Shown here: piece by piece, positions 10,428-17,087 of the stretch | How positions within the stretch are numbered: position 1 is the first letter of the stretch | Layout of the letters: the number at the start of each line of letters is the position of its first letter | Assembly: GCF_001677475.2 (NCBI RefSeq) | Contig: NZ_CP015229.1 | Reading direction: 5' to 3' (one strand) | From: Escherichia coli | Lineage (GTDB): Bacteria > Pseudomonadota > Gammaproteobacteria > Enterobacterales > Enterobacteriaceae | DNA length: 64,000 nt | Position numbers and translations under genes: made by a program | Notes under the pieces: generated by a model | Told to the model about the DNA's origin: nothing | The model's database searches: none | What the model saw: only the letters and a program-made list of their open reading frames with translations

Positions 10428-12617
10428 TTAATCAGCTAATGGCTGCGGGCGACCAATCAGATACCCTTGCAGATATTGCACCCCGAGCTTATGCAATAGC
10501 GCCTGTTGCTGTTGCGTCTCGACAAACTCCGCGACCACACTCAATGACTTCGCTTTCGCCAGATCGGTAATTGATCTCACAATCATCGCATCCAGCGTGT
10601 TCGTGACAATATCTTTCACAAAGACGCCATCAATTTTGATGATATCAGCCTGCAAACGCTTTAACCGTTCGTAGTTGGCATATCCGGTGCCAAAGTCATC
10701 AATCGCAATCCGGAAACCAAACTTATGCAGCTGCTCGATGTTGTACATGCTGCTTTCTGCGTTAGAAAACGCCTGCTCCTCGGTGATCTCAAGAATGACC
10801 GCCTGCGGGGAGATGTGATAACGCTTAAACAGACGAATAATCCGCCCGGCAATATTCTTTTGCAGCAGCGTGAGCGGCATTAAATTGACTGAAAAGCGCG
10901 GTCCTTTTTTGTCGCAAGGGTGTGTTGCCAGCCACTTCAACAAGGATTCCAGCACTTGCAAATCAAAACGCGCGCTAAGGTTAAACTGAGCAATAAGGGG
11001 CAGAAACTTATCCGGGGTCATAATGCCGCCGTCATACTTCAGTCGCGCGAGGATCTCATCATAACCTTCACCCTCTTTGTTGCGAATTGGCTGGGCGTAG
11101 AGCAGCAAATCACCCTGATCTAACGCCGTGCGAATGGTATTCAGCAATAGCACCTGTTTAGTGGTCTGCCCGGAAACCATCTCCTCTCTGCTATCCAGCG
11201 CCAGCACATGATGATGTGCACAGGATTGCTCCGCCAGCCAGCTTAACTGCCCCAACAAGGGTTGCAGGGTTTCCTGATTTCCATCAAAACGCCCCCAGGC
11301 AGCACCATAGCCCATATCCAGCCCGGTATTGTTCCAGTGAATTTGCCGACTATTCAGGATGTTAACCATATGCTGGAGTCGTCCTTCCGTTTCCGGTCCG
11401 CTCAGCACTAACAGCAGTTCACTACCCGGCAATTGATACAACTTTTCGTTTTCCTGCATCAACGGCAGCAGCGTACGGTAAATTGAGCGGATACAGTGAA
11501 CGCGCATCATTAACCCGTAATGACGACTCATAAACTCAAGATTATCAATGCGCAGGCAGCAAAAACTCTTGCCCGCCTCTTGCTCCGGCGCTTGTTCTAA
11601 CGCACGAAAGTTGGGTAGGAGCGTTAACGGATCGGTCAGCGCCTGCAAATGCCAGCGGCGATTAAGCCATTCACTGCGATGATAAATGCGCACCATATAG
11701 AGCAGGCAAACGCTAAAGGAAATCAGCACCGCAAGAATAAATGCCAGCGAATATTCGGTTTCCACCCCTTGCAAAAAGTTCTGGTTGTAATTCAGCAGGC
11801 AAAGCGTTGAAACAGCCCAGGTGAGATTTAAAAACGGATAGCGAAGCTTACCGACCCCGAGGGTAAAGATGATGAAGAAAACGGGTACCAGGTAACCGGC
11901 AATAAAGTCGTTTTCATAAGGTGTGCACAACAGAAGTAGCAGCACGCTTAACGCTGCCAGCCAGCTTAAGGTAAATGCGCGTTTCTCTTTGCCCAACGAC
12001 GGAGCGATATCCCTGCGCCACAATATCTGCGCAAAGTGGGGACTTACAATCATGCGAGTGAGATAGTAGAAAAGCATGTTGTAAATCAGCACAGCGGTGA
12101 AAAGGCTTAGCAAATCAACGACCGTGAAAATGGCATCCGCATCGCCGAAAAAGGTGGATATCTTTAGCGGGAAATCAAAGAAGCTCCCCACAAGATACAT
12201 GCTGCATTTGATGCCGATCGGCGTCACCAAACCAAGCCAGAACAGACGTTGCCAGACATATCGGCTGGTCAATCCATAACGCCAACGCGTCCCCAGCTGC
12301 CAGCGTAATATTGCGCAGGCACACAACACGACAAACGTCTGGCTGCCGAGCATGACCGCAGTCTGTAAAAAAGAGAGATGAAAGTTCCACAGATTGGTGC
12401 AAAACATCCCGCATAAAACGGGAACGACACCGCGCCAGCCAAAGATAAACAAGATTGATAGCATTACGCACAGTGGCATCCACGCCAGAAAGATATAACT
12501 GGAATGGATAATGGCAAGTGGCGAAATAAAACGGGATAGCTGAATAAGTACCACGGTGAGCGTAAACGCTAGTGTGAATATCTTGATATTTTTTATCAGG
12601 TTATGCTCCACAAACAT
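10428..12617 (-). CDS. pdeA: c-di-GMP phosphodiesterase PdeA (YfeA), MASE1-GGDEF-EAL
   Basis: ORF track 749 aa; start chosen at internal Met (MFVEHNLIKNIK) giving 729 aa; N-terminal polytopic domain, C-terminal EAL motifs (EITE...DDFGTGY). Confidence 0.85.
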   Translation of the reverse strand: MFVEHNLIKNIKIFTLAFTLTVVLIQLSRFISPLAIIHSSYIFLAWMPLCVMLSILFIFGWRGVVPVLCGMFCTNLWNFHLSFLQTAVMLGSQTFVVLCACAILRWQLGTRWRYGLTSRYVWQRLFWLGLVTPIGIKCSMYLVGSFFDFPLKISTFFGDADAIFTVVDLLSLFTAVLIYNMLFYYLTRMIVSPHFAQILWRRDIAPSLGKEKRAFTLSWLAALSVLLLLLCTPYENDFIAGYLVPVFFIIFTLGVGKLRYPFLNLTWAVSTLCLLNYNQNFLQGVETEYSLAFILAVLISFSVCLLYMVRIYHRSEWLNRRWHLQALTDPLTLLPNFRALEQAPEQEAGKSFCCLRIDNLEFMSRHYGLMMRVHCIRSIYRTLLPLMQENEKLYQLPGSELLLVLSGPETEGRLQHMVNILNSRQIHWNNTGLDMGYGAAWGRFDGNQETLQPLLGQLSWLAEQSCAHHHVLALDSREEMVSGQTTKQVLLLNTIRTALDQGDLLLYAQPIRNKEGEGYDEILARLKYDGGIMTPDKFLPLIAQFNLSARFDLQVLESLLKWLATHPCDKKGPRFSVNLMPLTLLQKNIAGRIIRLFKRYHISPQAVILEITEEQAFSNAESSMYNIEQLHKFGFRIAIDDFGTGYANYERLKRLQADIIKIDGVFVKDIVTNTLDAMIVRSITDLAKAKSLSVVAEFVETQQQQALLHKLGVQYLQGYLIGRPQPLAD

Positions 12618-12824
12618 GAGTACACTACTCTCACTGATCGGGGTTTTCAGGCACACAAATAATAAGTTTATTCGCATCGCGAAGCAAACAGGGGCCAGCC
12701 TGTTGCCTATTTTTCATCCAATGATGCTTTCACCAGGCGGCGCTAACCCGGACGTAGACTGTATTACAAAAGCGGCAAAAAGCAGAGACAAAAAACCCCC
12801 GCTTTGCAGCGAGGGTTGGAAATT

Positions 12825-12900
<76 letters not shown>

Positions 12901-12932
12901 GTCACGTAAAGCTTGTCGAGTTGACGGGCGGC

Positions 12933-12961
12933 ATCATATGAATTCCGCCCGAATGTGTCAA
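12933..12961 (-). promoter_or_regulatory. Sigma70 promoter for tRNA-Ala
   Basis: On minus strand TTGACA (12961-12956), 17-nt spacer, TATGAT (12938-12933), followed by GC-rich discriminator typical of stable-RNA promoters. Confidence 0.6.
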
Positions 12962-13134
12962 CGGCAAATTGCAACGTGTAGTTTCAATCGCTGAAAAATC
13001 AGGCAAATGAACAATTTTGGAAAACCGCTCGCATTCAGTAGTTATTCATGTCACGGTTTCCTGTAAAGTGGTGTTATAAAATGAACTACTAATAGACCCC
13101 ATACATTCAGGGAATTGTTATGTTCAAGGAGAGG

Positions 13135-13479
13135 ATGACGCCAGATGAACTTGCCAGACTGACTGGCTATAGCCGCCAGACCATTAATAAATGGGTACGC
13201 AAGGAAGGCTGGACAACGTCACCAAAACCTGGCGTCCAGGGTGGCAAAGCCCGACTGGTTCACGTCAATGAACAGGTTCGTGAATATATTCGCAATGCTG
13301 AACGTCCGGAAAGTCAGGGAGAAACGCCTGCCCTTTCTGGTGATGCGCCGCTTGAAGTATTGCTGGTGACACTGGCGAAAGAGATGACGCCAGTCGAACA
13401 AAAACAGTTTACATCCTTACTTCTGCGGGAAGGGATTATCGGATTGTTACAACGCTTAGGGATTCGCGATAGCAAATAA
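13135..13479 (+). CDS. yfeC: Putative HTH DNA-binding protein YfeC
   Basis: ORF track starts 13120; AGGAG RBS supports ATG at 13135 (MTPDELARLTGYSRQTINKWVRKEGW), 114 aa; paralogous to adjacent yfeD. Confidence 0.85.
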   Translation: MTPDELARLTGYSRQTINKWVRKEGWTTSPKPGVQGGKARLVHVNEQVREYIRNAERPESQGETPALSGDAPLEVLLVTLAKEMTPVEQKQFTSLLLREGIIGLLQRLGIRDSK

Positions 13480-13480
13480 T

Positions 13481-13873
13481 ATGAAAAGATTACGCAATAA
13501 AATGACCACCGAAGAACTGGCTGAATGTCTCGGTGTGGCTAAACAAACTGTTAACCGTTGGATCAGAGAAAAAGGCTGGAAAACGGAAAAATTTCCCGGC
13601 GTGAAAGGCGGTCGTGCCAGACTTATTCTGGTCGATACGCAAGTTTGCGAGTTTATTCAGAACACGCCTGCGTTCCATAACACACCAATGTTGATGGAAG
13701 CTGAAGAGAGAATTGCTGAATACGCTCCTGGAGCACGCGCCCCGGCGTATCGACAAATCATCAACGCGATAGATAATATGACAGACATTGAGCAGGAAAA
13801 AGTCGCGCAATTTTTGTCACGTGAAGGAATTCGCAATTTCCTCGCCCGTCTCGATATTGACGAATCAGCATAA
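13481..13873 (+). CDS. yfeD: Putative HTH DNA-binding protein YfeD
   Basis: 130 aa; MKRLRNKMTTEELAECLGVAKQTVNRWIREKGW, clear paralogue of YfeC. Confidence 0.85.
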   Translation: MKRLRNKMTTEELAECLGVAKQTVNRWIREKGWKTEKFPGVKGGRARLILVDTQVCEFIQNTPAFHNTPMLMEAEERIAEYAPGARAPAYRQIINAIDNMTDIEQEKVAQFLSREGIRNFLARLDIDESA

Positions 13874-13875
13874 AT

Positions 13876-13915
13876 AAAAAACGGCAGGATATTATCTCCT
13901 GCCGTTTATCTTTTT
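13876..13915. terminator. Bidirectional terminator between yfeD and gltX
   Basis: AAAAAACGGCAGGATATTATCTCCTGCCGTTTATCTTTTT hairpin with flanking A/T runs. Confidence 0.8.
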
Positions 13916-13924
13916 ACACGCTAA

Positions 13925-15340
13925 TTACTGCTGATTTTCGCGTTCAGCAATAAAGGCCAGCGCTTTGTTGATACGCTCAATGCTACGTGTCTTACCGATC
14001 GCGTGAACGGTAACATCCAGTGCTGGAGACTGCCCCGCACCGGTTACGGCGACACGCAGCGGCATACCAACTTTACCCATACCCACTTCCAACTCATCCG
14101 CCGTCGCCTGAATAGCGTGATGAACGTTTTCAGCGGTCCAGTCAGTAATCGCGGCCAGTTTGTCACGAACCACTTCCAGCGGCTGACGCGCTACCGGACG
14201 CAGATGTTTTTTCGCGGCGTCGGCATCGAACTCTGCAAAATCTTCGTAGAAATAACGGCAGCTCTGTGCCATCTCTTTCAGCGTCTTGCAGCGTTCGCCC
14301 AGCAGTTTCACCAGATCAGCCAGCTGCGGGCCGTTACGGGTATCGATATTTTCCTGCTCAATGTGCCACTGTAAGTGAGTAGCAACATACTCCGGCGGCA
14401 GCGCGTTAATGTAGTGATGGTTCAGCCACAGCAACTTGTCGGTGTTGAACGCACTGGCAGATTTGCTGACGGCATTCAAAGTGAAGTATTTGATCATCTC
14501 TTCACGAGTGAAGATTTCCTGATCGCCGTGGGACCAGCCCAGACGCACCAGATAGTTCAGCAGTGCTTCTGGCAAATAACCGTCATCACGGTACTGCATT
14601 ACGCTGACCGCCCCGTGACGTTTGGACAGTTTTTTACCGTCATCGCCGTTGATCATAGAAACGTGCGCGTAAACCGGCACCGGCGCTTTCAGGGCTTTAA
14701 GAATGTTGATCTGGCGCGGCGTGTTGTTGATATGGTCTTCGCCACGGATAACATGGGTGATTTCCATATCCCAGTCATCAACAACCACACAGAAGTTATA
14801 GGTTGGGGAACCATCGGTACGGCGAATGATCAGATCATCCAGCTCCTGGTTGCTGAACTCAATCGGGCCACGGATCTGATCGTCAAAAACAACAGAACCT
14901 TCCTGCGGGTTAGCAAAACGTACAACGCACGGTTCATCATCAGCATGATGCTCATGGCTGTGGCGGCAGCGACCGTCATAACGCGGCTTCTCACCTTTCG
15001 CCATTTGTTCTTCGCGCAGCGCTTCCAGGCGCTCTTTAGAGCAATAGCATTTATAAGCAGTGCCCTCTTCCAGCATCTGATCGATCACCGCGTTGTAGCG
15101 ATCAAAACGTTTGGTCTGGAAGTACGGACCTTCATCCCACTCCAGGCTCAGCCAGTTCATGCCATCCATAATGGCTTCGATAGCTTCCGGCGTGGAACGC
15201 TCAAGATCGGTGTCTTCAATACGCAGCACGAACTCACCGCCGTGGTTACGTGCAAAAAGCCAGGAGTAAAGAGCAGTACGCGCGCCGCCAACGTGCAGAT
15301 AGCCTGTTGGGCTTGGCGCGAAGCGAGTTTTGATTTTCAT
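13925..15340 (-). CDS. gltX: Glutamyl-tRNA synthetase
   Basis: 471 aa; N-terminus [27 protein letters not shown] (HIGH motif), KLSKR (KMSKS-like) motif present. Confidence 0.97.
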
Positions 15341-15553
15341 GAAATGGCCTTACGTTTAGAAAGATGCCGACAACCGGCAAATCCTGGAAAAATTGAGTGG
15401 GCGATATTCTATCACTCCCGCCTGATTCCTCAATGTAGTTCGGGTTTCTACCTTAAGCATTATTGTTTTCGTTGACAAATTGCGCAACACGGTCTGTTTT
15501 GCGATCATCTTGCTTAAATTTACGACGAACGAACAATTTCTTTAGAAAATGCG

Positions 15554-15581
15554 TTGACTCATTTTGAACTCTCCCTATAAT
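15554..15581 (+). promoter_or_regulatory. Sigma70 promoter of the Val-Val-Lys tRNA operon
   Basis: TTGACT (15554-15559), 16-nt spacer, TATAAT (15576-15581), GC-rich discriminator GCGACTCC, AT-rich upstream region. Confidence 0.7.
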
Positions 15582-15598
15582 GCGACTCCACACAGCGG

Positions 15599-15674
15599 GG
15601 GTGATTAGCTCAGCTGGGAGAGCACCTCCCTTACAAGGAGGGGGTCGGCGGTTCGATCCCGTCATCACCCACCA
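15599..15674 (+). tRNA. valU: tRNA-Val (UAC)
   Basis: GGGTGATTAGCTCAGCTGGGAGAGCACCTCCCTTACAAGGAGGGGGTCGGCGGTTCGATCCCGTCATCACCCACCA, 76 nt. Confidence 0.95.
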
Positions 15675-15718
15675 ACTACTTTATGTAGTCTCCGCCGTGT
15701 AGCAAGAAATTGAGAAGT

Positions 15719-15794
15719 GGGTGATTAGCTCAGCTGGGAGAGCACCTCCCTTACAAGGAGGGGGTCGGCGGTTCGATCCCGTCATCACCCACCA
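15719..15794 (+). tRNA. valX: tRNA-Val (UAC), second identical copy
   Basis: Identical 76-nt sequence to the first Val tRNA after a 44-nt spacer. Confidence 0.95.
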
Positions 15795-15798
15795 CTTC

Positions 15799-15874
15799 GG
15801 GTCGTTAGCTCAGTTGGTAGAGCAGTTGACTTTTAATCAATTGGTCGCAGGTTCGAATCCTGCACGACCCACCA
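15799..15874 (+). tRNA. lysV: tRNA-Lys (UUU)
   Basis: GGGTCGTTAGCTCAGTTGGTAGAGCAGTTGACTTTTAATCAATTGGTCGCAGGTTCGAATCCTGCACGACCCACCA, 4 nt after the second Val tRNA. Confidence 0.95.
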
Positions 15875-15878
15875 ATGT

Positions 15879-15907
15879 AAAAAAGCGCCCTAAAGGCGCT
15901 TTTTTGC
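15879..15907 (+). terminator. Intrinsic terminator of the tRNA operon
   Basis: AAAAAAGCGCCCTAAAGGCGCTTTTTTGC hairpin plus T-run. Confidence 0.85.
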
Positions 15908-15982
15908 TATCTGCGATTTGCGAAATTGCCTGATGCGCTTCACTTAGCAGACTACTATTTCCGGCAATTCCTGTCTCCTCAC

Positions 15983-16867
15983 CTACTGTGTCAATGCAGC
16001 CAACAGCTTAACCATCGCGGGCGTCACCTGCTGTGTTTCATAAACAATATATAAATCTGCAGGGATGCGCTGTTTGAGCGGACGGAAAATGACACCTGGC
16101 CAGTTCATTTGTGCGTAGCTGTCCGCTATCAATGTGATACCAATGCCCATACTGACCATGGCGAGTACCGTTTGCGGTTCATTAACTTCGCGAATAACAA
16201 CCGGTGAAAATCCCACCTGCTGGCAAACTCGCTGCAAAAAATCCCAGTCAGTGTACACGGGCGGCATTGTAACAAAATACTCGTCACGTAGCGCTTCCAG
16301 CGGGACGGTGGAAAATGATGAGAAATGATGCTCTTCAGGCATCGCCACCAGAAACGCCGATTCATGCAACCGTAAGCTGGTAAAACCTGCAGGTGGTTCT
16401 GTTGCCATTCGCCAGATACCGGCATCGAGTTCACGTCGTTCCAGCAGGGTCATTTGCATCGCGGGCATCTTTTCGCGAAAAAGAACGTCAACGTTAGGAT
16501 TTTCCCTGAGGAATCGCCGCATAACCGGGCGCATCCGTCCCCACATTGCCGTTCCCACTACGCCGAGTTCAATCCGCCCTGCTTCTCCCCGACCTATTTG
16601 TTCAACCCGAGCCAATACATTATTAGCATTCACCAGCAATCGACGCGATTCTTCCATCAAGATTTTGCCCGCGTGTGTCAGTACGACGCTGCGCGAATGG
16701 CGAATAAAAAGCTGCGTGCCGAGTTGATTTTCCAGCTCTTTAATATGAATACTGAGCGGAGGCTGAGACATATTTAAACGCGCTGCTGCGCGACCAAAAT
16801 GCAACTCTTCCGCTACGGCAAGAAAATAACGGAGCAACTTAAGATCTGTTCTGTATACGCGTTCCAT
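15983..16867 (-). CDS. xapR: LysR-family activator of xanthosine catabolism XapR
   Basis: ORF track 299 aa; start chosen at MERVYRTDLKLLRYFLAVAEELHFGRAAARLNMSQPPLS (294 aa), LysR HTH. Confidence 0.9.
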   Translation of the reverse strand: MERVYRTDLKLLRYFLAVAEELHFGRAAARLNMSQPPLSIHIKELENQLGTQLFIRHSRSVVLTHAGKILMEESRRLLVNANNVLARVEQIGRGEAGRIELGVVGTAMWGRMRPVMRRFLRENPNVDVLFREKMPAMQMTLLERRELDAGIWRMATEPPAGFTSLRLHESAFLVAMPEEHHFSSFSTVPLEALRDEYFVTMPPVYTDWDFLQRVCQQVGFSPVVIREVNEPQTVLAMVSMGIGITLIADSYAQMNWPGVIFRPLKQRIPADLYIVYETQQVTPAMVKLLAALTQ

Positions 16868-17087
16868 AATTAAGTGCTCCATATAATAAATACATCGTAT
16901 TAAATTATCATGGCATAAAGTATTTCACCACCAGATATCCGACATACATAAACACAATGGATAATATACCTGGTAATACATTTGGTACAGGAATAGGCAA
17001 GCGCACGATTGTAAACAAAGCACCAATGCCAAAACCAACGCCGGAAGAAAATAAAATATCTTTCACTAATTAACCTTTATCATAAAA

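Follow-up and report, generated by a model that had tools for sequence, protein, structure and literature searches.

The paralogous genes yfeC and yfeD of Escherichia coli: a conserved pair of small regulators between two tRNA operons, with sequence kinship to Mu-family repressors

The DNA analysed here is a 64,000-nt stretch of Escherichia coli contig NZ_CP015229.1, referred to below as the window, and all positions are those of this stretch unless stated otherwise. Between a tRNA-Ala gene on one side and gltX with a tRNA-Val/tRNA-Lys operon on the other, it carries two small adjacent genes that are the known E. coli K-12 genes yfeC (b2398) and yfeD (b2399), both already partly characterised. 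A first-pass annotation made from the sequence had described two tandem paralogous helix-turn-helix (HTH) genes at 13135–13873 with these same flanks, and the open reading frames, the protein similarity and the shared family all agree with that description. The window YfeD is 100% identical to that of K-12, YfeC differs from its K-12 counterpart at two residues, both in the linker, and the genes are present in 5425 of 5426 complete E. coli genomes. YfeC and YfeD are identical to one another at 48 of 127 positions (38%, BLASTP E=1e-27), and in the Pfam domain search proposed as a check both fell into the YfeC-like family PF07037 (gathering cut-off 22.9 bits), YfeC with 174.1 bits and YfeD with 213.5 bits, each in one full-length stretch. 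The N-terminal motif TxxELAxxxGxxxQTxNxWxRxxGW fits both proteins exactly, and the C-terminal tail REGI..(L/F)L.RL.I is also common to the two, as had been noticed. The accompanying remark that the function of the pair is not established is outdated, as chromatin immunoprecipitation with exonuclease trimming (ChIP-exo) and RNA-seq data exist for YfeC and ChIP-exo data for YfeD (PMC8464067). The finding as first stated is thus ordinary, the genes being annotated and both the Pfam family and the binding data published; in the current RefSeq annotation of K-12, YfeC is a "dual regulator".

The features of the locus are collected in Table 1. The true start of yfeC is probably 13120 and not the curated K-12 position 13135, because the codons upstream of the K-12 start (13120–13137) are conserved at the protein level across genera (MFKER, MIKERM, MLKERM, MVKDRM) and the longer form is the one called by the Prokaryotic Genome Annotation Pipeline (PGAP). 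The spacer between tRNA-Ala and yfeC measures 216–221 bp across genera and contains invariant blocks in an alignment of 78 loci. One such element, the putative tRNA-Ala promoter, is nearly invariant in the 78 genomes, its function being predicted from sequence; another conserved block, GTGTTATAAAAT, may represent an extended −10 element serving yfeC and yfeD, a candidate reading that is absent from the list produced by a consensus scan. The distance from the yfeC stop to the yfeD start lies between −20 and +9 nt in 77 of 77 genomes, and is exactly 1 nt in 48 of them. Because of this small gap and the one shared terminator after yfeD, the two genes would be co-transcribed, and they are probably translationally coupled. 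The only RNA families detected with Rfam were the four tRNAs.

Table 1. Coordinates of features at the yfeC-yfeD locus of the window
Feature	Coordinates	Strand	Basis and remarks
tRNA-Ala(GGC)	12825–12900	−	ARAGORN, Rfam; 3' end toward pdeA, 5' promoter side toward yfeC
Putative sigma-70-like promoter of the tRNA-Ala operon	12933–12961	−	TTGACA, 17-nt spacer, TATGAT; 11/12 match to consensus; divergent from yfeC
tRNA-Ala–yfeC intergenic control region	12901–13119	.	Alignment of 78 loci
Candidate extended −10 element of a yfeC-yfeD promoter, GTGTTATAAAAT	13070–13081	+	Conserved block in the 78-locus alignment
yfeC	13120–13479	+	119 aa; 114 aa from the K-12-style start at 13135
YfeC N-terminal Mu-type/MerR-like winged HTH	13141–13296	+	
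YfeC C-terminal two-helix segment after disordered linker	13351–13455	+	AlphaFold2 (AF2); hhalign; shuffle control 0/300
yfeD	13481–13873	+	130 aa; start 1 nt past the yfeC stop codon
YfeD N-terminal winged HTH	13499–13663	+	AF2; Pfam HTH_17, 31.4 bits
YfeD C-terminal helical segment	13742–13849	+	AF2; alignment
Bidirectional intrinsic-terminator hairpin	13879–13907	.	Terminator scan of both strands; inverted repeat; common to convergent yfeD and gltX
gltX (glutamate--tRNA ligase)	13925–15340	−	Convergent with yfeD
tRNA-Val(UAC) (two copies) and tRNA-Lys(UUU) operon	15599–15874	+	3' end toward xapR, away from gltX and yfeCD

A comparison of genomic context across the Enterobacteriaceae, which had also been suggested as a check, was run on one genome per species and yielded 80 loci from about 25 genera. 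The pair occupies a fixed position in all 80 species, and the order tRNA-Ala(−), yfeC(+), yfeD(+), gltX(−), tRNA-Val/Lys(+) is kept across the loci. The tRNA-Ala gene lies directly upstream in each of the 74 loci where that side is visible, and gltX adjoins the pair in 67 of 75, the exceptions being seven loci from Kosakonia species and relatives and one poor assembly. The site is likewise occupied by the pair in Cronobacter and Cedecea. In Kosakonia and relatives (loci L054, L064–L066, L071, L074 and L079) yfeCD keeps pdeA and tRNA-Ala as neighbours, and gltX is not found within 8 kb downstream; the genes following yfeD there are of AraC, metallo-β-lactamase-fold, TetR, MmyB-like, major facilitator superfamily (MFS), PhzF, EamA and LacI types, with no integrase among the eight open reading frames scanned. 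Purifying selection acts on both genes: with E. albertii as the comparison, the ratio of nonsynonymous to synonymous substitution (dN/dS) was 0.064 (yfeC) and 0.085 (yfeD), and comparisons with Salmonella, Citrobacter and further genera, usable only where dS is unsaturated, gave 0.05–0.16. The pair is most likely a core, vertically inherited operon of two paralogous small transcription factors, and its place between the tRNA genes is old and stable rather than the scar of an insertion.

Two departures from the common arrangement were seen within the Enterobacteriaceae. Enterobacter sp. BIGb0383 (locus L067, 7244–8390) carries three tandem paralogs in the order yfeC, yfeD-like, yfeD. In Escherichia sp. 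MOD1-EC7003 (locus L004, 7668–8001) YfeC is recognisable only at residues 82–119 and the tRNA-Ala–yfeD spacer is about 250 bp short, a natural loss of most of yfeC together with its promoter that leaves yfeD intact. The tRNA operons on either side vary in copy number. Against two tRNA-Ala(GGC) and three tRNA-Val(UAC) genes in K-12, the window has one and two, and most E. coli have two tRNA-Ala copies; the lower number corresponds to one tRNA together with its spacer having dropped out cleanly, which leaves 116 gap columns in the alignment. Among the 80 loci there are 1–3 copies of tRNA-Ala and 1–5 of tRNA-Val, with variation in E. coli and other Escherichia as well, and the difference from K-12 could be due either to recombination between tandem copies or to assembly collapse.

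The tRNA genes on both flanks had given rise to the suggestion that the pair is a relic of an integrated element, that is, the remnant of an island or prophage inserted at one of these genes. Integrases that target tRNA genes insert at the 3' end of the tRNA. The geometry of the locus is wrong for such an event because both tRNA operons point away from the pair, which lies on the 5' side of each, the 3' end of tRNA-Ala being at 12825 and that of tRNA-Lys at 15874. A search of 12600–16000 for an att-like direct repeat of a tRNA 3' end found none, returning only similarity between the tRNAs themselves and short chance matches, and the annotation of the E. coli region matching window positions 1–25000, which extends some 13 kb upstream and 11 kb downstream from the pair, lists no gene for an integrase or transposase and no phage gene, the neighbours in that region being tRNA-Ala, gltX, pdeA, nupC and mntH. 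The GC content of yfeCD, 0.45–0.48, is slightly lower than the 0.50–0.56 of gltX and pdeA, which would fit a foreign origin, but the difference is mild and not diagnostic; the DNA-binding fold of the two proteins also recurs among excisionases, terminase small subunits and phage repressors. Against these stand the retention of the pair in place with a near-constant spacer in about 25 genera and beside gltX in four families, the purifying selection on both genes, and a distribution that is anything but patchy, extending to the same place in 80 of 80 species loci. YfeD had no tblastn match in 50,697 phage records and 13 in 72,556 records labelled as plasmids, 12 of which are typed as non-mobilizable and several of which are chromosome-sized; there are no true plasmid copies of the pair. 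An origin by integration at a tRNA gene is accordingly very improbable, as the outcome named in advance as its refutation, a pair kept in place in distant enterobacteria and free of mobile-element signatures, is the one observed. Proximity to a tRNA gene by itself is weak evidence for an integrated element, and it is orientation and cross-genus synteny that decide.

Gene content beyond the tRNA 3' ends varies among the loci, with pdeA present in 58 of 70 and an xapR ortholog in 14 of 45. The xapR-xapAB region (window 15874–16882) is patchy in distribution; gene turnover associated with tRNAs would be expected on this side.

Outside the Enterobacteriaceae, yfeC-like genes were found in the corresponding slot between tRNA-Ala and gltX. 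In Chimaeribacter (Yersiniaceae) the slot holds a focA-like gene followed by one yfeC-like gene convergent with gltX, in Erwinia psidii (Erwiniaceae) a single yfeC-like copy, in Edwardsiella tarda (Hafniaceae) a single divergent copy, and in Pantoea agglomerans (Erwiniaceae) two copies that are mutually closest (locus L089, 6450–7181; 117 aa each, distance 0.25). A single copy also lies beside gltX in a deep uncharacterised lineage whose GltX is at best 74–76% identical to listed homologs. Rouxiella, Pectobacterium and Proteus have no yfeC-like gene by gltX and retain the frame tRNA-Ala … gltX … tRNA-Val/Lys. A restriction of the family to the Enterobacteriaceae was considered and is ruled out by the genes beside gltX in Pantoea, Erwinia and Edwardsiella. 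In Chimaeribacter, Pantoea and Rouxiella (loci L082, L089 and L091) a gene of the formate/nitrite transporter family stands between tRNA-Ala and the yfeC-like gene or gltX, and pdeA, which in the Enterobacteriaceae usually lies between nupC and tRNA-Ala, is absent from these three loci.

The origin of the pair by tandem duplication, as first proposed, is upheld by the paralogy of the two proteins, their common family and their adjacent position. In a neighbour-joining tree the first-position genes form one clade and the second-position genes another, with mean within-clade distances of 0.26 and 0.44, respectively, the second-position gene evolving faster. These data suggest a history in which a single yfeC-like gene convergent with gltX would predate the split of several Enterobacterales families and would later have been lost in some lineages, while tandem duplication, no later than the base of the Enterobacteriaceae, would have given rise to a slowly evolving yfeC and a faster yfeD. 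Later independent tandem duplications would have followed in Pantoea and in one Enterobacter species; that of Pantoea is recent and independent of the one that produced yfeC and yfeD, because its two copies are each other's closest relatives.

In AF2 models, the N-terminal domain of YfeC and YfeD is followed by a disordered linker of 15–25 residues and then by two or three short helices. The N-terminal fold matches the DNA-binding domain of pSK1 Par, phage Xis, BldC, RacA, the DNA-binding domain of the phage Mu repressor and MerR proteins; Foldseek searches of PDB and BFVD returned matches to this domain only and none over the full length. A phmmer search of PDB sequences with YfeD alone found nothing, and the link to phage Mu became visible only with the family profile and with bridging orthologs, sequence profiles being more specific here than fold comparison. 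The two best matches of the family profile in PDB (entries 1tns and 1g4d) were domain I-alpha of the MuA transposase (E=2e-6) and the DNA-binding domain of the Mu repressor (E=9e-5), the next match having E=0.08. The Edwardsiella ortholog by itself found the same two structures with E=7e-9 and 5e-8. On the Mu-type Pfam model PF02316 (HTH_Tnp_Mu_1; gathering cut-off 23.3 bits) the Edwardsiella and Chimaeribacter orthologs scored 53.2 and 28.0 bits, and both also pass PF07037; conversely, the Mu repressor itself reached 23.1 bits on PF07037, over residues 42–132. Proteins of 300–1300 aa with 5–13 generic HTH repeats (P0174, P0177, P0182 and similar) also came up in the family search, where they inflate the match count; they match dozens of HTH models and were set aside as unrelated.

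The similarity extends past the winged HTH. When the family was compared by hhalign with a profile built from four phage repressors (Mu, PhiR68_1, D108 and SfMu), almost the whole of the YfeC-like protein aligned with the first 107 of 170 repressor columns (97.5% probability, E=8.8e-12, 105 columns), and an alignment restricted to the Enterobacteriaceae gave the same register at 83.8% and E=7.8e-6. In this alignment the C-terminal two-helix segment of YfeC corresponds to the segment that follows the DNA-binding domain in Mu-family repressors. The C-terminal half alone matched the repressor profile with E=1.5e-5; its score of 31.4 compares with 9.7±2.0 in 300 column shuffles, none of which reached that value. 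Homology of YfeC and YfeD to the DNA-binding domain and following helical segment of Mu-family repressors, excluding the last ~60 repressor residues, is thus well supported at the level of profile comparison. In the Mu repressor the C-terminal helices oligomerise. By analogy, the C-terminal helices of YfeC and YfeD would mediate dimer or oligomer formation, while the wing and recognition helix of the winged HTH would contact DNA. This homology, which was not met in a narrow search of the literature combining yfeC and phage Mu, may provide a structural and mechanistic model for two poorly understood regulators: a winged HTH with oligomerising helices and a repressor mode of action.

A mobile-element origin in a different form from that first suggested therefore deserves consideration, in which the pair would descend from the c repressor of a Mu-like prophage that transposed beside gltX in an early Enterobacterales ancestor and then decayed, the repressor being duplicated later. 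The near full-length homology of the family to Mu-family c repressors agrees with this, as does the occurrence of a yfeC-like gene in one slot beside gltX in the genomes examined, with all named members belonging to the Enterobacterales. A Mu-type domain is common to the repressor and the transposase of Mu-like phages (PMC3820752). No gene lies further out than c at the left end of Mu, so it could outlast deletion of the remainder, and the E. coli chromosome also keeps SfsB, a homolog of Mu Ner (64% identity). On the other hand, the transfer could have run the other way, with phages acquiring a host regulator; no other Mu-like remnant was found at the locus in the lineages examined; pairwise similarity to the Mu repressor is very low (16 aligned residues); and any such event would be so old that end sequences would no longer survive. 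We regard domestication of a Mu-type repressor, which agrees with all the data, as a tentative proposal, with somewhat less than an even chance of being correct. Of the earlier idea of a mobile-element origin, the insertion at a tRNA gene thus falls away while an ancient kinship with Mu repressors is retained, and a possible mobile-element ancestry of the pair would be ancient, of Mu type and unrelated to the tRNAs.

The published binding data describe 50 YfeC sites and 43 YfeD sites by ChIP-exo, with an inverted-repeat motif at the YfeC sites, and 16 of 20 direct YfeC targets are repressed (PMC8464067). The YfeC targets include the translation genes rpmB, rpmH, rpsU and rplU, and in a yfeC deletion the expression of yfeD rises by log2 4.33, or about 20-fold (adjusted P ~5e-133; PMC8464067). 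YfeC may thus repress its own operon, and the published ΔyfeC phenotypes are those of a strain over-producing YfeD. Deletions of yfeC are viable in K-12, enterohaemorrhagic E. coli (EHEC) and K1, the K1 mutant reportedly growing normally, and one study of yfeC mutants found a gut-colonisation defect.

Several points weigh against parts of this account of yfeC and yfeD as a vertically inherited operon of Mu-repressor-like, self-repressing regulators. The AF2 monomer models have predicted template modelling (pTM) scores of only 0.45–0.52. The link to Mu rests on profiles and bridging orthologs, the window YfeC scoring 15.2 bits on PF02316 (E=0.027, below the cut-off) and YfeD falling outside the top list, and the assignment of the C-terminal helices to oligomerisation is drawn by analogy. 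The tRNA-Ala–gltX slot varies by family, being empty or occupied by an esterase, focA-like or yfeC-like gene, and the internal branches of the tree are so short that the yfeC/yfeD duplication may be placed either before or after the split of Enterobacteriaceae and Erwiniaceae. A polar or cassette effect, and not release from autorepression, could explain why yfeD goes up when yfeC is deleted. Finally, the YfeC ChIP-exo peak labelled yfeC (NC_000913.2 positions 2516052–2516085) converts to approximately 12812–12846 of the window, which places it on the alaX 3' end and terminator, some 400 bp ahead of yfeC and off the putative promoter. The conversion between NC_000913.2 and NC_000913.3 uses an offset of about +1977, which we take to be correct as it fits the total length difference, and which places another listed ChIP-exo site upstream of ibaG, as is sensible. 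As tRNA genes are prone to ChIP artefacts, the peak at the end of alaX may be either a real site or an artefact of a highly transcribed region.

The same peak bears on the proposal that YfeC and YfeD are dedicated local regulators of gltX, of the flanking tRNA operons or of both, which would explain their old linkage. In four families gltX has a yfeC-like gene as its neighbour, conservation is high in the intergenic region that also holds the tRNA-Ala promoter, and, in addition to the converted position of that peak near alaX, several YfeC targets are genes of translation. Yet neither the YfeC nor the YfeD list contains a ChIP-exo site assigned to gltX or alaW, and the binding of both proteins is spread over the genome. 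Kosakonia, moreover, has parted yfeCD from gltX and retained the pair, and the linkage may simply reflect a stable and highly expressed neighbourhood. A dedicated local role for the pair is improbable on this evidence.

A different function was proposed for the pair in 2007, when RASTA-Bacteria predicted it to be a toxin–antitoxin system (PMC2374986), a prediction repeated in later papers (PMC5847654). This would make yfeD/yfeC a type II pair, for which the arrangement of two small, tightly spaced genes, one with an HTH, was the published ground (PMC2374986, PMC5847654). A match of YdaS_toxin (20.3 bits against a cut-off of 30) and AbiEi-like HTH models point the same way below threshold, but no toxin model exceeds its cut-off in Pfam, NCBIfam or PADLOC, and the matches from NCBIfam and PADLOC were sub-threshold and to generic HTH models only. 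YfeC and YfeD, as paralogs, have one fold and one domain order in common, each binds many sites on the chromosome, and yfeC deletions survive the 20-fold increase in yfeD. Toxin–antitoxin loci are typically patchy in distribution, and the inheritance of this pair is fixed and vertical. It is extremely unlikely that yfeC and yfeD form a toxin–antitoxin system.

The binding data also contain a site of particular interest in connection with the Mu homology. The strongest ChIP-exo peak of YfeD (signal-to-noise ratio 57.6) and a YfeC peak (28.6) have the same coordinates (PMC8464067 data). By coordinate conversion this shared peak maps to the first ~50 nt of sfsB, at NC_000913.3 ~3334930–3334960 (locus L099, ~931–961), and SfsB (Nlp) is the protein with 64% identity to the Ner protein of phage Mu mentioned above. 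The Mu repressor controls the promoter from which ner is transcribed. YfeC, YfeD and SfsB could be scattered remnants, fixed in the host, of a Mu-type immunity switch whose circuit is still functional, in which the repressor-like paralogs would bind the start of the ner-like sfsB, might act as homo- and hetero-oligomers and might cross-react with the operators of incoming Mu-like phages. The regulatory link in this scheme is a hypothesis drawn from one ChIP-exo data set and a coordinate conversion, and cross-talk with Mu is pure conjecture. In addition, sfsB is absent from the published table of expression changes in the yfeC deletion (PMC8464067), where redundancy with the strongly induced YfeD may possibly have masked an effect. 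We consider a surviving circuit of this kind unlikely. An inverted repeat, CAGAA-N6-TTCTG, present ~35–50 nt before the sfsB start is given no weight here. The homology to the Mu c repressor is possibly the useful addition made by this analysis, as it yields testable predictions on sfsB, on hetero-oligomers of YfeC and YfeD and on Mu-like phages.

Among known systems, the Pfam family PF07037 "YfeC-like transcription regulator" (formerly DUF1323) comprises these same genes, and nothing material differs. Islands and prophages that target tRNA genes resemble the locus in tRNA proximity only, the pair having no integrase, att repeats or patchiness and lying on the wrong side of the tRNAs. The small MerR-like winged-helix proteins (BldC, the RacA N-terminal domain, pSK1 Par and phage Xis) resemble YfeC and YfeD in the N-terminal fold. 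Members of the MerR family proper have a long antiparallel coiled coil and an effector domain, whereas YfeC and YfeD have a disordered linker and a two-helix segment instead. RefSeq names for YfeD in E. coli genomes are "MerR family transcriptional regulator" or "YfeC-like transcriptional regulator"; the former is loose because no MerR model passes its cut-off, MerR_1 scoring 12.6 bits on YfeC against a cut-off of 21.6 and no MerR model appearing among the 25 best families of YfeD.

Other resemblances are to the regulators and transposase of Mu-like phages. The N-terminal domain I-alpha of the MuA transposase (1tns/1tnt) ranks first among the PDB sequences matched by the family profile and has the same winged-HTH signature; in MuA it is the DNA-binding domain of a 663-aa transposase, while YfeC and YfeD are without catalytic domains. 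SfsB offers a precedent for the fixation of a Mu early-region regulator in the core genome of E. coli, and differs from YfeC and YfeD in fold, family and locus. With the c repressor of phage Mu (Rep) and its kin in D108, SfMu and PhiR68_1, YfeC and YfeD share the winged-HTH signature W..P.EL...GW....GVKGGKA, followed by a linker and then a helical segment of the form L..L...M/L.P.E....L.LL...G...L, and like Rep, YfeC mainly represses. Unlike Rep, the two proteins are only 119–130 aa in length, lacking its last ~60 residues, and they are encoded outside any prophage and away from ner or transposase genes, as core genes at a fixed locus.

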